From Candidatus Sifarchaeum subterraneum (GTDB lineage Archaea > Asgardarchaeota > Sifarchaeia > Sifarchaeales > Sifarchaeaceae), in the NCBI GenBank assembly GCA_016292335.1, contig JAECRX010000097.1, positions 1 to 38,150 on the forward strand: DNA of 38,150 nucleotides. Direction: 5' to 3'. Of the stretch, positions 6,068-37,463 are shown one piece after another. Each line of letters begins with the position of its first letter. The first letter of the stretch is position 1. The translations under genes and the position numbers were made by a program. The notes beneath the pieces were generated by a model. It worked only from the letters and a program-made list of their open reading frames with translations. It was not told where the DNA came from and did no database searches.

Positions 6068-6164
6068 GACGTAAAATAATACGTCACCGAGAGGTTAAGG
6101 AAGGCCGGATACGGGAAATCCGTATGTCCAGTTTGACAGGAAGTAGGAGGGAGTAATCCCTCCC
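6068..6164 (+). repeat. Three consecutive GC-rich hairpins, the middle one followed by AGTTTGAC; possible short relative of the GC-island family
   Basis: Hairpins are gacgta/tacgtc (6068-6085), ggatacgg-gaaat-ccgtat(gt)cc (6107-6129) followed by agtttgac (6130-6137), and ggaggga-gtaa-tccctcc (6146-6163). They lie in the divergent spacer between the NIF3 and rsmB-like genes. The overlapping ORF 5932..6156 looks spurious. Confidence 0.3.
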
Positions 6165-6342
6165 ATTTACCCTGCTATGAAACATTCTTATCGCATTGGC
6201 ACCCTCGTCTCCTGACTTGCATAATCTTTGAATTTCATGAAAATATCAATCAAAAAAAGGGAGATTTTTTGATTAATAAACAATCTATCGCAGTCGAAGC
6301 ACTTTATGAAATAGAAATTAATAAATTTCAGCAAGGTTAGCT

Positions 6343-7599: not shown

Positions 7600-7694
7600 C
7601 TACTCCCTTTACAGGAATGTAAGGACTTTCATTTTTTCGCTTTGTTCTCGATCCGTCATCAAAAGTAATACTTCGCATTAATATAGATTATCTT

Positions 7695-7908
7695 AAGGCG
7701 ATTCCCCCTTTAGGCAGGGGAGAACTGTGGTTTGGTAATACACCCCCTCCCTTTAGGGAGTTTTGGTACAAAACAGACCTTAGCCTCAGAACAGTGCCTA
7801 AGAAAGATTCCCTTCCATTTCGGAGCACCCTTGGATGCGTGCCATCGTAGGTTTTTCCTAGCCTACCTCGCCTTGTGGTCGCTCACCCTTCAAGGTGGAA
7901 TAGTTGAC
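7695..7908 (+). repeat. GC-island element, full-length copy A
   Basis: 5' hairpins are ttcccc-ctttaggc-agggga and ccctccc-ttta-gggag. The central block gtgccatcgtagg is shared with copy E. The 3' signature is gctcacccttcaaggtggaatagttgac (7881-7908). It lies between convergent genes. ORF 7732..7929 is an artefact of the high G+C. Confidence 0.5.
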
Positions 7909-9488: not shown

Positions 9489-10076
9489 TTAAACTATTGT
9501 TTCCTCAGAAATTTTTGTTTTTTCCTCTTTTGGAATATTATGAAGGAAGATTTTTTTAACTAATACTTCAAAAACTCTCTCCACATTTTCACCTGTTTTT
9601 GCAGAAGTTTCAAAATAACTCGTATTCATCCTATTGGCAAAATGATAACCATCAATTTCTGGTACTGACCTGAGATATCTGAGATCTGATTTATTACCAA
9701 CTAAAACAGTTGGAATTTTACCTGCATGGTTTAGAAGTTCATTTGACCAATTATGGAGATCCATGAAAGTATCAGGTCTTGTTAAATCAAAAACAAGTAT
9801 ACTTCCCCTTGCGCCAAGATAATATGCTCGTCTTACTTCTTTGAAGTGAGGTTGACCGCCCAGATCCCATATCACAAGCTTGGTGTTAATTCTTTTATTA
9901 AACTCACTGAAAACAATGTTTTTTGAAGAAATATGTGTTCCCATCGTCATTATATAGTCTCCAACAAAATAGTTTTCAACATACCTTCGAATCAAAGATG
10001 ATTTACCTACTGCTGGATCTCCGATGACAGTTACTTTGAATAAAAAATCAGCCAATAGTTTTTCCCTCTTCATCAT
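9489..10076 (-). CDS. Rab/Ras-like small GTPase
   Basis: 195 aa. G1 is GDPAVGKS, G3 is WDLGGQ, G4 is GNKSD and G5 is ETSAK. Confidence 0.85.
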   Translation of the reverse strand: MMKREKLLADFLFKVTVIGDPAVGKSSLIRRYVENYFVGDYIMTMGTHISSKNIVFSEFNKRINTKLVIWDLGGQPHFKEVRRAYYLGARGSILVFDLTRPDTFMDLHNWSNELLNHAGKIPTVLVGNKSDLRYLRSVPEIDGYHFANRMNTSYFETSAKTGENVERVFEVLVKKIFLHNIPKEEKTKISEETIV

Positions 10077-10094: not shown

Positions 10095-10218
10095 AGCATC
10101 TAGCTGAAATGCATGATCGGTTTGCCTATCACTTACACAGGAACGCATCTAAAGAGCCGTGCACACCATGCTCACTCAGTCTGCCTCAAGCTCCGTCCTT
10201 CAGGGCGGAGTTCTTGAC
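10095..10218 (+). repeat. GC-island element, short copy B (3' module)
   Basis: It shares cacaggaac and caccatgctcac with copy C, and agagcc..catgctc with copy D2. It ends in ctccgtccttcagggcggagttcttgac (10191-10218). It starts 19 nt from the Rab-like gene start, on the opposite strand. Confidence 0.45.
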
Positions 10219-10462: not shown

Positions 10463-11007
10463 TTTTTAGATATTTGTGTTTTTGTATATCCTCCTCTTAG
10501 ATTGTTTGGATTCGGAGTGTTTTTAATCCTAATTGGTGTAAATTACAGTTTGATATTCTGTATCAGAGTATAAAATCGCTTGAGAAATATTTTCTTAGGG
10601 ATATTATATCACATTTTTTGCGTATCTTCACGTATGTATAGTATTTTTTTAGCAATCTTGCAATATAAAAACAATTTATCTAAATATTTGTAAAGAAATC
10701 AATCATAATTATTGTTAGCAATATTAAAAATATGCGAAAAATAGGTTTTAATATATCATCATTATAGGATGTTATTAATGTTCTTGTTTCCATTGATATG
10801 TGGATGCCTTCACAAGTATTTCTAGTTCGGCAACTTTATACTTAAATATCAATCAGGTCCACATCTATTGCAATTATCGATTTTTTAGCAATTAAACCAA
10901 AAATTTAAAAACCAATTAATAGAATTAAATCTATTCCCCTCAAACGTATAAAATCCATCTCTTAATATCGCTGAAGATCTAGACTCTAAGAATATGAGGT
11001 ACCAAAC

Positions 11008-12854: not shown

Positions 12855-13401
12855 CGTACCTCCTTTATTGTTTCCACGTAAATTCCCTTATACAATATAA
12901 TAATAAAAAAGGATGCGAAGGGTGTGATCTGGTGCCCTGGATCACGGAGCGGGCTTTTCGACTATATATCCTGCATCAGATAAAATTTTAACACCCAACT
13001 ATGTCGCTGGAATACAGGAAATTGAAAAAATCGAAATAAAGGAAGAGTATGGAGCAGACCTGCAACAGACCTTGTAACTTCTCAAAAAGTAGAAAGAGAA
13101 GGTCATGGCTTATTAGAAATTGGAAGCCGATTATCAAACAAAGGATAAAAGGGACATTCCCCTTGTAACCTGGAGGAGAGTGAACATCGAATAAATCATG
13201 CGGAAATTTCGAGTCGAAGAGAAGCTGCGCAATGGAATCAAAACTTTTCAAACGAAAAGGATCTTAATGGGCGCGAAATTAGACTTTGGTGTCTCAATTT
13301 ATCCCTAACTTCTTCAAAAAGTTCCTCTCCCTTCATCCAGTATAAAAGTTTAAAGGATCAAAGAATAGTGGAGTTTTTATTGTTATTTTCAAAAGAGTCA
13401 A

Positions 13402-15487: not shown

Positions 15488-15566
15488 AGGGCGGTGGTCT
15501 AGCCAGGAAAGGGACGCCGGCCTCCGGAGCCGGAGAACCCGGGTTCAAATCCCGGCCGCCCTGCCA
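15488..15566 (+). tRNA. tRNA-Arg (anticodon CCG), CCA encoded
   Basis: Hand-folded cloverleaf. Acceptor is AGGGCGG/CCGCCCT, D stem GTCT/GGAC, anticodon stem CCGGC/GCCGG with loop CTCCGGA, and T arm CCGGG-TTCAAAT-CCCGG. Discriminator is G, followed by CCA. Confidence 0.9.
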
Positions 15567-17486: not shown

Positions 17487-17508
17487 AATATCACCTTGGT
17501 TACCGCAA

Positions 17509-17781
17509 GAAGGCCTCTCGCCTTTAAACGAGGGAATAGTTGCGGTTGTCGGGTAGATTTCCCTTATAAAGGAATTTAGTGTCTATCGAGACTGCTAGGA
17601 AGGCTTAGTCTCTGAAAGAAACATGGCGTTAAGTGCTACTGTCGTAGAGCTTGGAACTCGGACACGTATCCTCTGGTATTTGTAGCCATCCAGGCAGCTA
17701 TCCTATAACACAGGAACTCTAGTCAACTTTCGCTTTGTTAGCACCATCATAAACTCAGTCTTTCAGGGCGGAGTAGTTGAC
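17509..17781 (+). repeat. GC-island element, full-length copy C
   Basis: 5' hairpins are cctctcg-cctttaaa-cgaggg and atttccc-ttataaa-ggaattt. The central block cacaggaac..caccat is shared with B. The 3' signature is actcagtctttcagggcggagtagttgac (17753-17781). It lies between the argS start and tRNA-Arg(GCG). Confidence 0.5.
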
Positions 17782-17932
17782 TCTCATATCGTATTTTTAA
17801 GGGCATATCTCTTTTATTATGAATTAATTGAAAAAATTTATCACTCCTGCTTTACTTTCTACAAATACTGTTGCCAGATGAAAGATCATATTGACTTTTT
17901 CAAAGTTTTTTTAGACAATTGGTGGATCGAAA

Positions 17933-18070
17933 TGGCGGGCCCGACGGGATTTGAACCCGCGAAACAGCCATCCAGTATACGGTTACTGGCAGTTTACTGG
18001 CTCCGCAGGCCAGCGCCTTATCATGGTTAACGTAAAGCCCGGCTAACTATCCTGGCTAGGCCACGGGCCC
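17933..18070 (-). tRNA. tRNA-Arg (anticodon GCG) with two non-canonical introns (D-loop and variable/T-arm junction), CCA encoded
   Basis: The reverse complement reads GGGCCCG-TG-GCCT-AGCCAGGATA[about 29 nt]AGGC-G-CTGGC-CTGCGGA-GCCAG-[36 nt, of which about 5 are the variable loop]-GCGGG-TTCAAAT-CCCGT-CGGGCCC-G-CCA. The exons sum to a 75-nt cloverleaf plus CCA. Exact splice points are not fixed by eye. Confidence 0.75.
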
Positions 18071-19225: not shown

Positions 19226-19360
19226 ATCATGTAATAACGGAATACTATGAACATACCGTTCATAGTACGTTCTTGTGCATGAGACGAACCGTCAATGAGA
19301 GTCCGACGCTTAAGACGGTTTTCGGATGACTCGCAGGGGACGAGAATTGTCTTAAAAGAC
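19226..19360 (+). repeat. Conserved structured element H, copy 1 (immediately 5' of hef)
   Basis: It aligns with 23393-29. Shared runs are taataacggaat, tgcatg, atgagagtcc and acgctt. Internal hairpins are kept with different stems (actatgaac/gttcatagt here). Confidence 0.45.
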
Positions 19361-23392: not shown

Positions 23393-23529
23393 CATGCTTA
23401 TAATAACGGAATGCTGCGCGTATATCACTCGTATAACGTTTTTATGCATGGAAAGAACCATCGATGAGAGTCCAACGCTTGAGATAGTCCATTATGAGTC
23501 ATAAAGGACGATAAATGTTATAAACAACT
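23393..23529 (+). repeat. Conserved structured element H, copy 2 (immediately 5' of the AK6/Fap7-like gene)
   Basis: See copy 1. The second hairpin here is cgt-ata...tat-a-acg. The terminal hairpin is gtc-ataaag-gac, versus ctcg-cagggga-cgag in copy 1. Confidence 0.45.
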
Positions 23530-24213: not shown

Positions 24214-24291
24214 TCCTCACCATGCTAAACAGCTAAATTTAGCATCTACCTCGCAAGAAGCCCCCATGCGCAAGCGTGGGGAAGAATTGCG
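24214..24291 (+). repeat. GC-island element, short copy D1
   Basis: It has cctcaccatgct (compare B caccatgctcac) and hairpin atgct/agcat. Hairpin cccca-tgcgcaagcg-tgggg is followed by aagaattgcg and then a T6 run. Confidence 0.35.
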
Positions 24292-24389
24292 TTTTTTCAA
24301 GGTTCAACAACATTTTAAAGCATCTTTTTTCAGTATACTTTTGGATTGAGCTGAGGTAACACTCGCCAATTCTTTAATTTAATCACGAT

Positions 24390-24485
24390 AAGTCAGGGCA
24401 GGAACTGCCCGTAGAGCCTGTTGGACATGCTCTATTAGGAGATGGATGAATCAGGAAGCCCCATCTGGTAGGGGGGGTAGTTCAC
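24390..24485 (+). repeat. GC-island element, short copy D2
   Basis: It has hairpins gggcag-gaa-ctgccc and agagcc..catgctc, the latter as in B. It ends in agccccatctggtagggggggtagttcac (24457-24485). Confidence 0.4.
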
Positions 24486-24859
24486 ATTTAGGATTTATGA
24501 ATCATAAAAAAGAGTGGTCAAAGTGGTCCTCTCCCTAAAACCTGTAGCGAAAAACCGGCCATTCCACACACGTTGGTTTACCCCACTTACTACTTTTCAG
24601 TTTAAAGTCATTCGCTAGGGGATATGGAGAACCACATGGCCCGTTTTACCTTGAGTTTTCCTCATCCCTGTGATTGTTTTATGTAATTTTTGATATTTCA
24701 AATATCTGGAGGCTGATCGTGGTAAAAGCGGAAAAGGGAATTCTTCAAAAAGCCAGGACTATTTGAACTCAAAGTCTTTATATTCGACAAAAAAATTTCA
24801 AAGAAAAAAACTCGAGTATCTTTCAAAAAATAAAGTGGAAAATAAAGGAGGTATAAGGT

Positions 24860-30080: not shown

Positions 30081-30352
30081 GCCAACTACTCCTCCCTGAA
30101 GGTTAGAGCCTTTTGGATGAGCCACTACAACGTGGGAGTTGAGTAGGCGTCCCCTATGATGGCACACATTCTGGGATGCTTCGCTAGTTCTGTCCCTGCA
30201 AACCGTGTGTTTAACAAGGGGACCCGTCATGGGTGGCCACTTTTCGTGGGTGCGGCTCCAAAGCGATGGCACGTTTCGTATCATAAATCCTTTTAAGAAG
30301 GGTGTGTATCTCCAAATCACAATTTCGCGCACACCTTTAGGTGTGTGTCCCT
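30081..30352 (-). repeat. GC-island element, full-length copy E (only clear minus-strand copy)
   Basis: The reverse complement gives 5' hairpin cacacacc-taaa-ggtgtg and acaccc-ttcttaaaa-gg. The central block is gtgccatcatagg (compare A). The 3' signature is ctctaaccttcagggaggagtagttggc (30108-30081). ORF 30015..30332 is an artefact. Confidence 0.5.
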
Positions 30353-33988: not shown

Positions 33989-34765
33989 TTATGAAATTTT
34001 GCCCAATTGAGTAAAACCACTTAGATAGGTTCTTTTTTCCTCAAAATTGCATAAGCCGAGTTCGTAAAGTGAAATAAAAAAGCTATAAATTAAAGAAAGA
34101 TCAAATCCTATTCCCAACTTTTTCCAAATTTGTAAAAGTGAGCGATTATTATCAGTATGAGAAAGGATTTTGTTGATCATTTCAAGATCATATTTTCTAA
34201 CAAGTTCAGCGGCAAGTGAACCTTTTAGAATCTTATATTTTTGTTCTTTAGATATGATCGGAATTTTTTGTCTTGAAAACGTGAGTAAATCCACTTGAGT
34301 AATTTGAGGTTTCTCCTTTGATTTGTATTCATTGATTCGATTATTCAGTCTATTTGGATCGATTGTTTTTATCCAACCATCAAAATTAATCAGATCCCCC
34401 TCTGCTTCCTCCAATATCATTTCAGACTCTTCTATAAAAGGTTGAACAGGAACTGATGAGTCAATTATGAAGAACAGTAGATCCTTCACTACAGTATTAT
34501 CTGTTTGTCGTTCATTTCGAGCAATAATTATTTTTTCCCCCTTAAAATCAATAGAATCGATAGAAGTATCTGCAACGCCCATGTGGAATTGAGCTAATAA
34601 CATAGGATCCCGGAGAGTTTCAATAAACCTTGAATTTTCATTGAAAACTTTTTCAAAGGCTATAACTGGCCCTAAAGTTGTATCAAACACGACTAGAATA
34701 ATTGCTTTCAGCCCACATTGACTTAATTCAGATTGAAACTCATCTTCAGTCATTTTATGAATCAT
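33989..34765 (-). CDS. Orphan protein, predicted GTPase partner (N-terminal alpha/beta domain, C-terminal helical/winged-helix-like part)
   Basis: 258 aa. Its start overlaps the upstream GTPase gene by 11 nt. The N-terminal LKAIILVVFDTTLGPVIAFEKVF resembles the first strands of longin/roadblock-type folds; this is inference only. Confidence 0.55.
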   Translation of the reverse strand: MIHKMTEDEFQSELSQCGLKAIILVVFDTTLGPVIAFEKVFNENSRFIETLRDPMLLAQFHMGVADTSIDSIDFKGEKIIIARNERQTDNTVVKDLLFFIIDSSVPVQPFIEESEMILEEAEGDLINFDGWIKTIDPNRLNNRINEYKSKEKPQITQVDLLTFSRQKIPIISKEQKYKILKGSLAAELVRKYDLEMINKILSHTDNNRSLLQIWKKLGIGFDLSLIYSFFISLYELGLCNFEEKRTYLSGFTQLGKIS

Positions 34766-35333
34766 TTTTTCTACTACCTATCCCATCGATAATTGACAAT
34801 AATTTGTAAAATGCGGTTTTAACATTCAATCCTGTTATTGAAGAAGTTCCAATAACTGGAATATTATTCTCAATTCCCAATATTTTTGCAATTTCCTCAG
34901 GTTTCAAAGCTGCTGGCAAATCTTGTTTATTAGCACAAACAACAAAAGGAACATTAATAGTCTCCTTTAAAAGTTTCAGAATTAATTTGGATTCCTCGAT
35001 TATTTGAGAACTGGCAGTTGAATCAACGAGAAGAAAAGCTCCTTTAGAACCCGCCCACCATAGATTCCATAATGGTCTATACCTTTTTTGACCACCCAGT
35101 TCCCAAAGAATAGCATGTATGTTTTCAAAAGGTATTTTGTAAAAAGCCACACCGGGAGTTGGCTTGTATTCATGACAAGCAATTAAGTTGTTTTCGAATT
35201 CTTCTGCAATAATACTTTCAAGTACTTTACCCATTGTAGTTTTTCCAGATCCTCCACTTCCCATTAAGAGCAACTTAACGTTTGAAACAATTAGAGGAGT
35301 ATTTGACTTATGACTTCCATTAACACTGATCAA
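34755..35333 (-). CDS. Arf/Sar-like small GTPase
   Basis: 192 aa. G1 is GSGGSGKTT, G3 is WELGGQKRYRPLW (Arf-type WDxGGQ..R.lW) and G4 is NKQDL. Confidence 0.85.
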   Translation of the reverse strand: MISVNGSHKSNTPLIVSNVKLLLMGSGGSGKTTMGKVLESIIAEEFENNLIACHEYKPTPGVAFYKIPFENIHAILWELGGQKRYRPLWNLWWAGSKGAFLLVDSTASSQIIEESKLILKLLKETINVPFVVCANKQDLPAALKPEEIAKILGIENNIPVIGTSSITGLNVKTAFYKLLSIIDGIGSRKNDS

Positions 35334-37247: not shown

Positions 37248-37463
37248 GTTTTAAACTCCTTTAATTTTTTTGCAGCTTCTTAAATATTTTCACAAAGGAA
37301 AAATATAGGTTCTAAACCTTTTTACGCACATTTTTAATTTTATAACCAATATTTGTGATTGATTTCTTCACAAAAATCCGGATAAATTGATTTCATATTG
37401 CAAGATTACAACAAAAATTACTATACAAAGGTGAAGATGTGTGAAAAATGGGTCTAAGCTGAA

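Follow-up and report, generated by a model that had tools for sequence, protein, structure and literature searches.

The 38,150-nucleotide stretch of Candidatus Sifarchaeum subterraneum DNA analysed here (contig JAECRX010000097.1, forward strand; the window hereafter) belongs to an AT-rich archaeal chromosome (34.6% GC) carrying housekeeping genes, in which several intergenic islands stand out by a GC content of 46-51%, i.e. 12-16 points above the window background. These islands, among them the one lying between a tRNA-Arg gene and argS, raise the question of whether they are genes for a structured RNA of the host or products of a mobile element and, in the latter case, which RNA they carry and on which strand. 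An initial annotation of the sequence had offered both answers, i.e. a new non-coding RNA (ncRNA) family or IS200/IS605-like elements of the omega-RNA or PATE type devoid of a transposase. Our analysis makes it very probable that the islands are non-autonomous, protein-less mini-elements of the IS200/IS605 type (ISC/IS605), either PATE-like or of the standalone omega-RNA kind; with distinctly less assurance, we take their RNA to be an IscB-type (HEARO) omega-RNA, the guide-RNA scaffold of the Cas9 ancestor IscB, encoded on the strand opposite to that first proposed.

Intergenic islands with two transposon-like ends

The 22-nt signature CYTTCARGGNGGARTAGTTGAC, with up to three mismatches allowed, was matched four times in the window (7887-7908, 10197-10218 and 17760-17781 on the plus strand, 30081-30102 on the minus strand) and not once across 100 dinucleotide shuffles; the shared end signature is real and not a product of chance, and the initial description of multi-copy GC-rich islands is thereby borne out. 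Read along the top strand, the copies consist of a left-end hairpin followed by GAGAAnTG, an inner sequence and a right-end hairpin running into GAGTAGTTGAC, after which the homology between copies stops. Four copies, named A, C, D and E, are complete with both ends, measure 230-287 bp and enclose 110-170 nt of inner sequence; their subterminal hairpins lie on the same strand at both ends without terminal inverted repeats, and no target-site duplication is visible at the copies. Since pairwise identity is only 50-57%, the copies share architecture more than sequence, as had been proposed.

At least five islands had been announced, and A, B, C, D and E do exist, but B proved to be a fragment and D a complete element, and a probable sixth copy, F, was added. 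The left-end module (a hairpin, GAGAAnTG and a second hairpin) had been credited to A, C and E, where it is indeed present, but it is not limited to them: a left-end hairpin at ~24250-24300 makes D a complete element and not only the piece initially called D2. The boundaries, too, had probably been drawn too narrowly. In the list below the strand is that of the proposed RNA; HEARO is the Rfam family RF02033, which models the IscB omega-RNA and has a gathering threshold of 83 bits, R1 is a covariance model of the 5' 150 nt of IscB omega-RNAs built from non-window sequences only, and ORF stands for open reading frame.

7679-7908, minus strand: element A, 230 bp, complete and without an ORF; a KaiC-like gene of the same orientation lies 27 nt upstream; R1 20.0 bits
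10095-10218, minus strand: element B, right-end fragment of ~125 bp without a left end, its inner boundary uncertain; R1 25.8 bits
17495-17781, minus strand: element C, 287 bp, complete and without an ORF; the genes on either side, argS and an intron-containing one for tRNA-Arg, are likewise on the minus strand; recognised by motif match, HEARO, R1 (37.3 bits) and copy comparison
24246-24485, minus strand: element D, complete variant of 240 bp whose end reads GTAGTTCAC, with a different hairpin loop
30081-30365, plus strand: element E, 285 bp, complete and without an ORF, flanked by the plus-strand genes for the Lhr helicase and L7Ae; R1 31.8 bits
1-227 (the end lying between 206 and 227), plus strand: element F, probable sixth copy cut by the window start, of which only the 3' portion and a hairpin resembling a left end (..CGCGAUUCAUCUCCCCCCUGAAGGGAGAGAG..) remain in the window

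Element B, a truncated relic, shares the blocks AUGGUG..GUUCCUGUG with C and abuts the start of a Ras-family GTPase gene; it lies directly before the start codon and could influence the expression of that gene. Element F is the weakest of the six, being proposed on the GC content of bases 1-200 (0.495), a local R1 match at 161-183 (E 0.16) and its likeness to the left ends of D, A and C. Adjoining D, the stretch 24500-24650 reaches 46.5% GC and matches no ORF family and no RNA family.

Neither Pfam scans of 30 ORFs nor tblastn searches, for which TnpB and IscB served as queries, revealed a TnpA, TnpB or IscB in the window, in agreement with the initial annotation. The ORFs overlapping A, C, D and E matched no family, and the inner parts of these elements contain HEARO-like blocks. 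A short TCAY/GCAT-type motif seems to accompany each copy, the boundaries being placed by comparison of the copies; read in RNA sense, the left-end flanks are ATGC in A and D, GTGA in C and ATGA in E, and they fit the targets published for ISC transposons, GT|GA and N|ATGA, which are used without duplication in hosts that include archaea such as Methanosarcina (Kapitonov, Makarova & Koonin 2016, PMC4810608). The termini of ISC transposons begin with 5'-GTCA and are shared with TnpB-only elements of the IS605 type, which carry TnpB on the other strand (PMC4810608). Unlike ISC transposons, which are ~1.5 kb long and encode IscB, the window elements span 230-287 bp and lack an ORF. The transposase-less IS200/IS605-like proposal was right in essence, the copies having hairpins at both ends, no ORF, no visible duplication and a target-like motif in the left flank.

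The different but paired stems of the copies had been interpreted as compensatory change, an interpretation that we could extend to 34 related ends fitted to R1, although such fitting biases the alignment towards structure. Standard pairs occupy 80% of the cells against 73.5% in shuffles, and 10 pairs are changed on both sides against 5.0 expected; these values were reached by none of 500 column shuffles and by no slid register. One pair of the terminal hairpin alone appears as GC in 16 ends, CG in 5, UA in 4 and AU in 3. The terminal hairpin at least has thus undergone real compensatory change, as has, in IscB-type members, the central hairpin.

One transposon end beside tnpB and iscB in other genomes

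An exact-pattern scan of one genome per species retrieved 15 loci, and metagenome and viral scans ~40 more. Four actinomycete matches among the 15 fell in GC-rich coding sequence and were discarded as chance. In the remaining 11, from Methanotrichaceae, Methanosaeta, Methanoperedens, the Asgard archaeon Candidatus Borrarchaeum weybense, Methylacidiphilum, Bipolaricaulia, Sulfobacillus and others, the matching stretch runs on as far as ..CAAGCTCCGCCCTTCAGGGCGGAGTAGTTGAC, beyond which the sequences are unrelated. In these 11 genome loci and in ~30 metagenome or viral loci, TTGAC is where homology breaks off, and a homology that always ends at one nucleotide while the flanks differ identifies a transposon end.

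Two kinds of gene accompany this end. In 11 of all the loci the end is immediately preceded, on its own strand, by the gene for a TnpB homologue, the ORF ending at or near the TAG inside GGAGTAGTTGAC; in L013 the protein has Cas12f1-like_TNB and OrfB_IS605 as Pfam domains, and translation stops at that very TAG. A hairpin followed by GAGGAAA precedes tnpB in L026, L030 and L052, with the architecture of the left-end module of the window copies. Two short loci from one Methanotrichaceae metagenome-assembled genome, L003 and L007, retain of the tnpB element L004 its left end and its final ~115 nt; therefore, ORF-less deletion derivatives of tnpB elements exist. On the opposite strand, where iscB genes follow this end at a distance of about 250-290 nt, an IscB ORF starting ~277-290 nt inside the same end was found in L038, L046 and L015, its product beginning M..V.VL.K..KPLMPC..KRAR.LL; in L038 and L046, which also end beside ATGA, it is a complete IscB (Pfam RRXRR and HNH) whose database relatives are named 'RNA-guided endonuclease IscB'. 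HEARO matches above the gathering threshold were obtained in L022 (138 bits), L046 (116 bits) and L038 (110.7 bits), and they start exactly at the reverse-complemented signature, the HEARO consensus start being GUCAacuaCCCCcgcccUaAAggAgGGGGCuUg and the reverse-complemented signature GUCAACUACUCCGCCCUGAAGGGCGGAGCUUG.

The same end thus serves two RNA types, one per strand: that of TnpB on the same strand with a 3' guide, and that of IscB on the opposite strand with a 5' guide, so that the end motif alone cannot tell which RNA an element makes. Such a double use is known in principle from Kapitonov 2016 (PMC4810608) and Meers 2023 (bioRxiv 10.1101/2023.03.14.532601).

These loci also decide the fate of the new ncRNA family. 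Intergenic GC-rich islands with covarying hairpins, none of which matches Rfam at the gathering threshold in the window, are what a host-encoded structured RNA unrelated to mobile elements would look like. However, the signature is a widespread IS200/IS605 end common to tnpB and iscB elements of bacteria, archaea and viral contigs, with a fixed end nucleotide and differing flanks, and its reverse complement is the 5' start of HEARO; the host RNA explanation is effectively refuted. As products of mobile elements, the conspicuous GC-rich intergenic islands of this Asgard genome should not be annotated as new RNA genes of the host.

Two of the relatives are clearly HEARO-like and share with the window copies the right end, the post-tail hairpin and the left-end module. 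L005, an ORF-less element in Ca. Borrarchaeum, matches HEARO below threshold (63.5 bits, E 1.5e-10) with the central hairpin and tail intact, and L021, a metagenomic relative, aligns with it throughout (R1 131.1 bits versus 127.5 for L005). A profile search for IscB was uninformative on an Asgard IscB, its best 120 matches being only bacterial or unnamed IscBs.

Three further configurations were noticed among the loci. In L018 (396-537) a left-end hairpin contributes its 5' half and a right-end hairpin its 3' half to a direct junction (..CACCTCGAGCAGGCAGGAGGCCCCGTCC TTCA GGGCGGAGTAGTTGAC); a minimal end-to-end element, or else recombination between the two near-identical hairpins, would explain it. 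In L039 (411-696) HEARO-like starts occur twice in the same orientation, at 411 and 613, suggestive of an element inserted into, or in tandem with, another one. In L008, L033, L037 and L054, from Methylacidiphilum and related metagenome contigs, homology to IscB does not set in until about residue 111 of the query, and a compressed HEARO match spans 116 nt (43.8 bits), as if an N-terminally truncated or degenerate IscB locus had kept the same end.

Strand and type of the encoded RNA

The initial annotation had considered a TnpB-type scaffold on the plus strand with its guide 3' of AGTTGAC. This is probably the wrong strand; an IscB-type RNA with its guide 5' of GUCAAC is moderately favoured. 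The call for the opposite strand derives from the full-length HEARO match of C, the presence of HEARO beside iscB elsewhere, the folding asymmetry of A, B and E, and the orientation of the copies relative to their upstream genes. Element C reads as follows:

17754-17781, minus strand: right end, in RNA sense GUCAACUA and then the hairpin CUCCGCCC-UGAA-AGACUGAG; reverse complement of the 3' signature first described
17722-17728, minus strand: AGUUGAC, pairing with the 5' GUCAACU as the HEARO outer helix P1 in the HEARO and R1 alignments
17645-17679, minus strand: stretch aligned to the HEARO central hairpin (consensus CACCcugGgAUGC...AGUcCcagGCUCUG), degenerate, with several non-canonical pairs
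17574-17594, minus strand: CAGUCUCGAUAGACACUAAAU, aligned to the HEARO 3' tail (consensus ..uuggCGAgGcgaAcauUAC)
17558-17574, minus strand: post-tail hairpin UUCCUU-UAUA-AGGGAA, read from the sequence, with a U.G pair only on this strand; it corresponds to the second hairpin, with a TAAA-type loop, of the initial annotation
17503-17545, plus (top) strand: left-end module with outer stem CCGCAA/TTGCGG and inner hairpin CCTCTCG..CGAGGG, then GAATAGTTG
17491-17494, plus strand: candidate target motif TCAC (GUGA in RNA sense) just outside the left end
17782-17801, minus strand: flank and putative source of the 5' guide (RNA sense ..AAUACGAUAUGAGA, then GUCAAC), placed by the IscB omega-RNA layout in the literature

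All 211 HEARO positions are aligned in C, at 17574-17781 on the minus strand, with a score of 37.9 bits and an E-value of 1.8e-4 for the whole window. The ends linked to TnpB scored 22-24 bits over at most 97 nt in a control search of similar size, ~14 bits less than C. The likeness to HEARO comprises the start GUCAACUAC, a first hairpin with a CUGAAG-type loop, the outer helix GUCAAC/GUUGAC and a CGAURG tail, and extends to a presumed RNA that begins exactly at the right end of the transposon with the guide outside the element; published accounts likewise describe the IscB omega-RNA as HEARO-like and bounded by the right end, with a guide 5' to it and outside the element. The GUCAAC at the transposon end, the first hairpin and the outer helix are present in C, B and E and weaker in A. 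All three are common to TnpB-type ends, and therefore they do not discriminate between the RNA types. The HEARO central-hairpin consensus is degenerate in C and present in E, where its loop consensus CUGGGAUGCUUCGCUAGU lies at the expected distance. A CGAURG-type motif occupies the place equivalent to the tail of C in E, F, L005 and L021, replaced by CGAGUG in D, which also carries AAUUGGCGAGUGUUAC, resembling the HEARO 3' tail. The hairpin directly after the tail has the same position in A, C, E, L005 and L021. At the other extreme of the element, the left-end architecture of C is that found upstream of tnpB in L026, L030 and L052, and in L005 and L021; the outer stem covaries, being CCUCAA/UUGAGG in L005 and CCGCAA/UUGCGG in C.

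Once the end hairpins are removed, the minimum free energy of the inner domain favours the IscB sense in A (-6.6 kcal/mol), B (-7.5 kcal/mol) and E (-8.9 kcal/mol). The same comparison favoured the IscB sense in five of six IscB-type controls and the TnpB sense in all six TnpB-type controls, by 3.9-15.6 kcal/mol in the latter. Read in the IscB sense, A follows the KaiC-like gene, C the tRNA and E lhr; these are the three copies whose upstream gene is confidently identified, and all are co-oriented with it. Upstream of B and D lie small unannotated ORFs, again in the same orientation. Co-orientation with the upstream gene is reported for IscB and not for TnpB elements by Meers et al. (bioRxiv 10.1101/2023.03.14.532601), where it is explained by transcription having to enter from outside the element. 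The scaffold before the left end would be ~215-230 nt long, near the published mean of 242 nt for IscB omega-RNAs.

A mechanism can be outlined from published work on this family. The bottom strand of the elements would encode an IscB-type omega-RNA; transcription would enter from the upstream host gene and copy ~16-20 nt of flank as 5' guide, followed by a scaffold that would start with GUCAACUAC and fold into the first hairpin, the outer helix GUCAAC/GUUGAC, the central hairpin, the CGAURG tail and a further hairpin. A Y1 TnpA supplied from elsewhere could mobilise the element as single-stranded DNA through the two top-strand hairpins. The empty site that excision leaves behind would be cut by an IscB, likewise supplied from elsewhere and loaded with the RNA, and repair would then bring the element back. 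The two ends, the lack of an ORF and the family relationship on which this outline builds are direct observations.

Several results weigh against an IscB-type RNA in these copies. No window copy reaches the 83-bit HEARO threshold: C is the best, with many non-canonical pairs in the Rfam alignment of its inner domain, which in HEARO comprises a central hairpin, a long-range helix and a pseudoknot tail, HEARO applied to A and E alone gave no match at E <= 10, and B, D and F gave none in the whole-window scan at the same cut-off. At the gathering threshold, Rfam found only tRNA in the window and the first 15 loci. The search of Rfam that had been recommended to test novelty has thus a divided outcome, since it does return an existing family, HEARO, but below threshold in the window and above it in the related loci L022, L046 and L038. 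R1 recovers C, E, B and A on the predicted strand and did not detect D, and TnpB-type ends score 33-42 bits with it, so that R1 proves the shared end and not the type of RNA. A second model, R2, directed at the inner domain, found nothing significant in the window, giving for E a local match only, at 30174-30190; the negative is a weak one, because the underlying MAFFT alignment is visibly out of register in places and contributes one helix only. A nhmmer search of the window inner domains against all fetched loci returned only the duplicate contig. It is on account of these two negative inner-domain tests that the IscB-type assignment is held with reserve. The inner-domain folding energy is neutral in C (-1.7 kcal/mol) and opposite in D (+5.9 kcal/mol), which makes the orientation of D the least certain of all copies, and folding z-scores are unremarkable in A, B, C and E (-0.65 to +0.94), D reaching -2.05 on both strands. 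The terminal hairpin of C pairs better on the plus strand, its wobble pairs there becoming C.A mismatches on the minus strand; such mismatches occur, though, in IscB-linked copies too, and the hairpin must also serve the transposase as top-strand DNA. The identity of only 50-57% implies that no copy is a recent insertion and that some may be dead. Finally, neither IscB nor TnpA is encoded in the 38-kb window, to which the search was limited, and no iscB (RRXRR and HNH) lies in it directly downstream of the island scaffolds, a result that rules out a cis IscB locus but not a standalone omega-RNA.

Part of these data would suit ORF-less derivatives of tnpB-only (IS1341-type) elements, in which the RNA would start inside the element on the plus strand, end with ...GGAGUAGUUGAC, run into a guide in the 3' flank and serve a TnpB acting in trans. 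We regard this as unlikely, although it has several points in its favour besides the plus-strand preference of the terminal hairpin of C and of the inner domain of D: the identical end motif closes the TnpB omega-RNA regions in 11 loci, the last ~35 nt being identical to those of the TnpB omega-RNA (reRNA, IS1341/IS605-type) and the GTCAAC...GTTGAC helix lying, as there, within the last ~75 nt; true deletion derivatives exist, as L003 and L007 illustrate; the AT-rich loops of the second hairpin (TTATAAA, TTAAAA) could, in our view, be archaeal TATA boxes; and TnpB is far commoner than IscB according to the literature. Conversely, the scaffold of the TnpB omega-RNA overlaps the 3' end of tnpB and precedes its guide, whereas the window inner regions are unlike any TnpB 3' coding region (tblastn E > 6) and three of the five fold better on the other strand, the asymmetry of A, B and E being opposite to that of all six TnpB controls. 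The full-length HEARO match of C on the other strand, at ~14 bits above TnpB-type ends, and the lack of any match to the Rfam TnpB-type (sotRNA) families in the window speak in the same direction. Moreover, archaeal RNA polymerase tends to terminate at T runs, and such runs, one of T5 in A and two of T6 in D, precede the would-be guide on the plus strand.

Slightly less probable still is that the copies are inert relics, i.e. decayed IS200/IS605-type elements that are immobile, make no functional RNA and have at most a positional effect on their neighbours. The low identity between copies, the truncation of B, the HEARO scores absent or far below threshold, inner-domain folding no better than that of shuffled sequence in A, B, C and E, and the lack of effector and transposase genes nearby in the window searches all fit such a decay. 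Yet the end and post-tail hairpins of A, C, D and E are well paired despite different stem sequences, and the GC surplus of the islands, 12-16 points over their AT-rich surroundings, has been maintained; neutral decay would wear both features down, unless they predate insertion. Further down in probability, and in our opinion improbable, comes a lineage without an (active) IscB in which the scaffolds are kept for a host purpose, possibly as structured 5'-leader or processing elements or as guides for a different, undescribed Asgard partner protein. The location of copies directly upstream of, or between, housekeeping genes (argS, the Ras-family GTPase gene, the L7Ae gene) is to be noted in this context.

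Compared with known systems, the protein-less mini-elements bearing a presumed IscB-type RNA come closest to two kinds of non-autonomous locus. Standalone omega-RNAs are mobilised loci without effector and transposase (Altae-Tran et al. 2021, via PMC10691335); they reportedly act in trans, through a compatible effector that the same genome encodes at another place. The window copies resemble them in lacking effector and transposase and depart from that description in being old and diverged. PATEs are presented by Meers et al. (bioRxiv 10.1101/2023.03.14.532601) as minimal elements of the IS200/IS605 type that have the subterminal hairpins of both ends, lack any protein gene and 'often encode omega-RNAs', which have to be used in trans. 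The window copies likewise have both hairpin ends and no protein gene; however, the trans partner named for PATEs in that text is TnpB, whereas the window copies look IscB-type. They differ from the HEARO family itself in scoring 37.9 bits (C) or nothing (A, E) against 83, in having no iscB after them, in a scaffold followed directly by the other transposon end and in their Asgard host.

Every ingredient of this proposal has thus been described before; new here are the diverged members in an Asgard archaeon and their number, 5-6 copies in 38 kb, which would amount to hundreds per genome if the density is typical. OMEGA-type (IscB/HEARO) elements, or at least RNA-bearing miniature derivatives of them, are probably present in deep-branching Asgard lineages, having been seen in this window and in Ca. 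Borrarchaeum, in copies diverged enough to escape the curated threshold of Rfam. If they are active with an IscB in trans, each copy would mark a natural guide/target pair, useful for the characterisation of an archaeal IscB.

Gene neighbours and further observations in the window

The window encodes an archaeosine tRNA-guanine transglycosylase, NIF3, an RsmB-type methyltransferase, KaiC-like ATPases, small GTPases of the Ras and Arf families, HMG-CoA reductase, ArgRS, Hef/XPF, Lhr, L7Ae, adenylosuccinate synthetase and GatB. The closest relative of the ArgRS is that of Ca. Asgardarchaeum californiense (~53% identity), Thorarchaeota coming next, and the genes for the Ras-family (9489-10076, minus strand) and Arf-family (34755-35333, minus strand) GTPases are an Asgard archaeal hallmark. 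A 4.8-kb metagenome contig from ENA (P0001) is 99.9% identical to part of the window.

Element C was also considered as an IscB or TnpB locus acting in cis, which was ruled out because the adjoining ORFs of 633 and 418 amino acids are ArgRS and the RsmB-type methyltransferase. The tRNA gene on its other side (17936-18070, minus strand) contains at least one intron and an encoded CCA end; its anticodon loop CUGCGGA indicates, by eye, Arg(GCG). It was missed by ARAGORN and scored only 23.1 bits with the Rfam tRNA model. A second gene, for tRNA-Arg(CCG), lies at 15488-15566 on the plus strand, so that argS is flanked by two tRNA-Arg genes.

Other repeats are present in the window. An 84-nt direct repeat, 75% identical, occurs at 19232-19315 and 23401-23484 on the plus strand, upstream of the Hef/XPF helicase-nuclease and AAA_18 kinase-like genes; its two-sequence consensus folds into two hairpins with four pairs changed on both sides. 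Possible identities are a leader common to both genes, a regulatory RNA or a gene for a small RNA. An inverted repeat of ~145 nt, 77-82% complementary, links the AT-rich intergenic stretches 10612-10756 and 37305-37450, 26.5 kb apart, and may represent another small repeat family or a shared promoter region. Two sub-threshold Rfam matches complete the picture. One, to group II intron domain V/VI at 6100-6176 on the plus strand (32.4 bits versus a threshold of 40, E 0.0097), lies between NIF3 and rsmB and comprises a GAAA-tetraloop hairpin and then a longer bulged hairpin (fold z = -2.6), which could be an intron remnant; the other, to the Clostridiales-2 sRNA at 13133-13224 on the plus strand (29.6 bits versus 58.6, E 0.0037), is probably due to chance.

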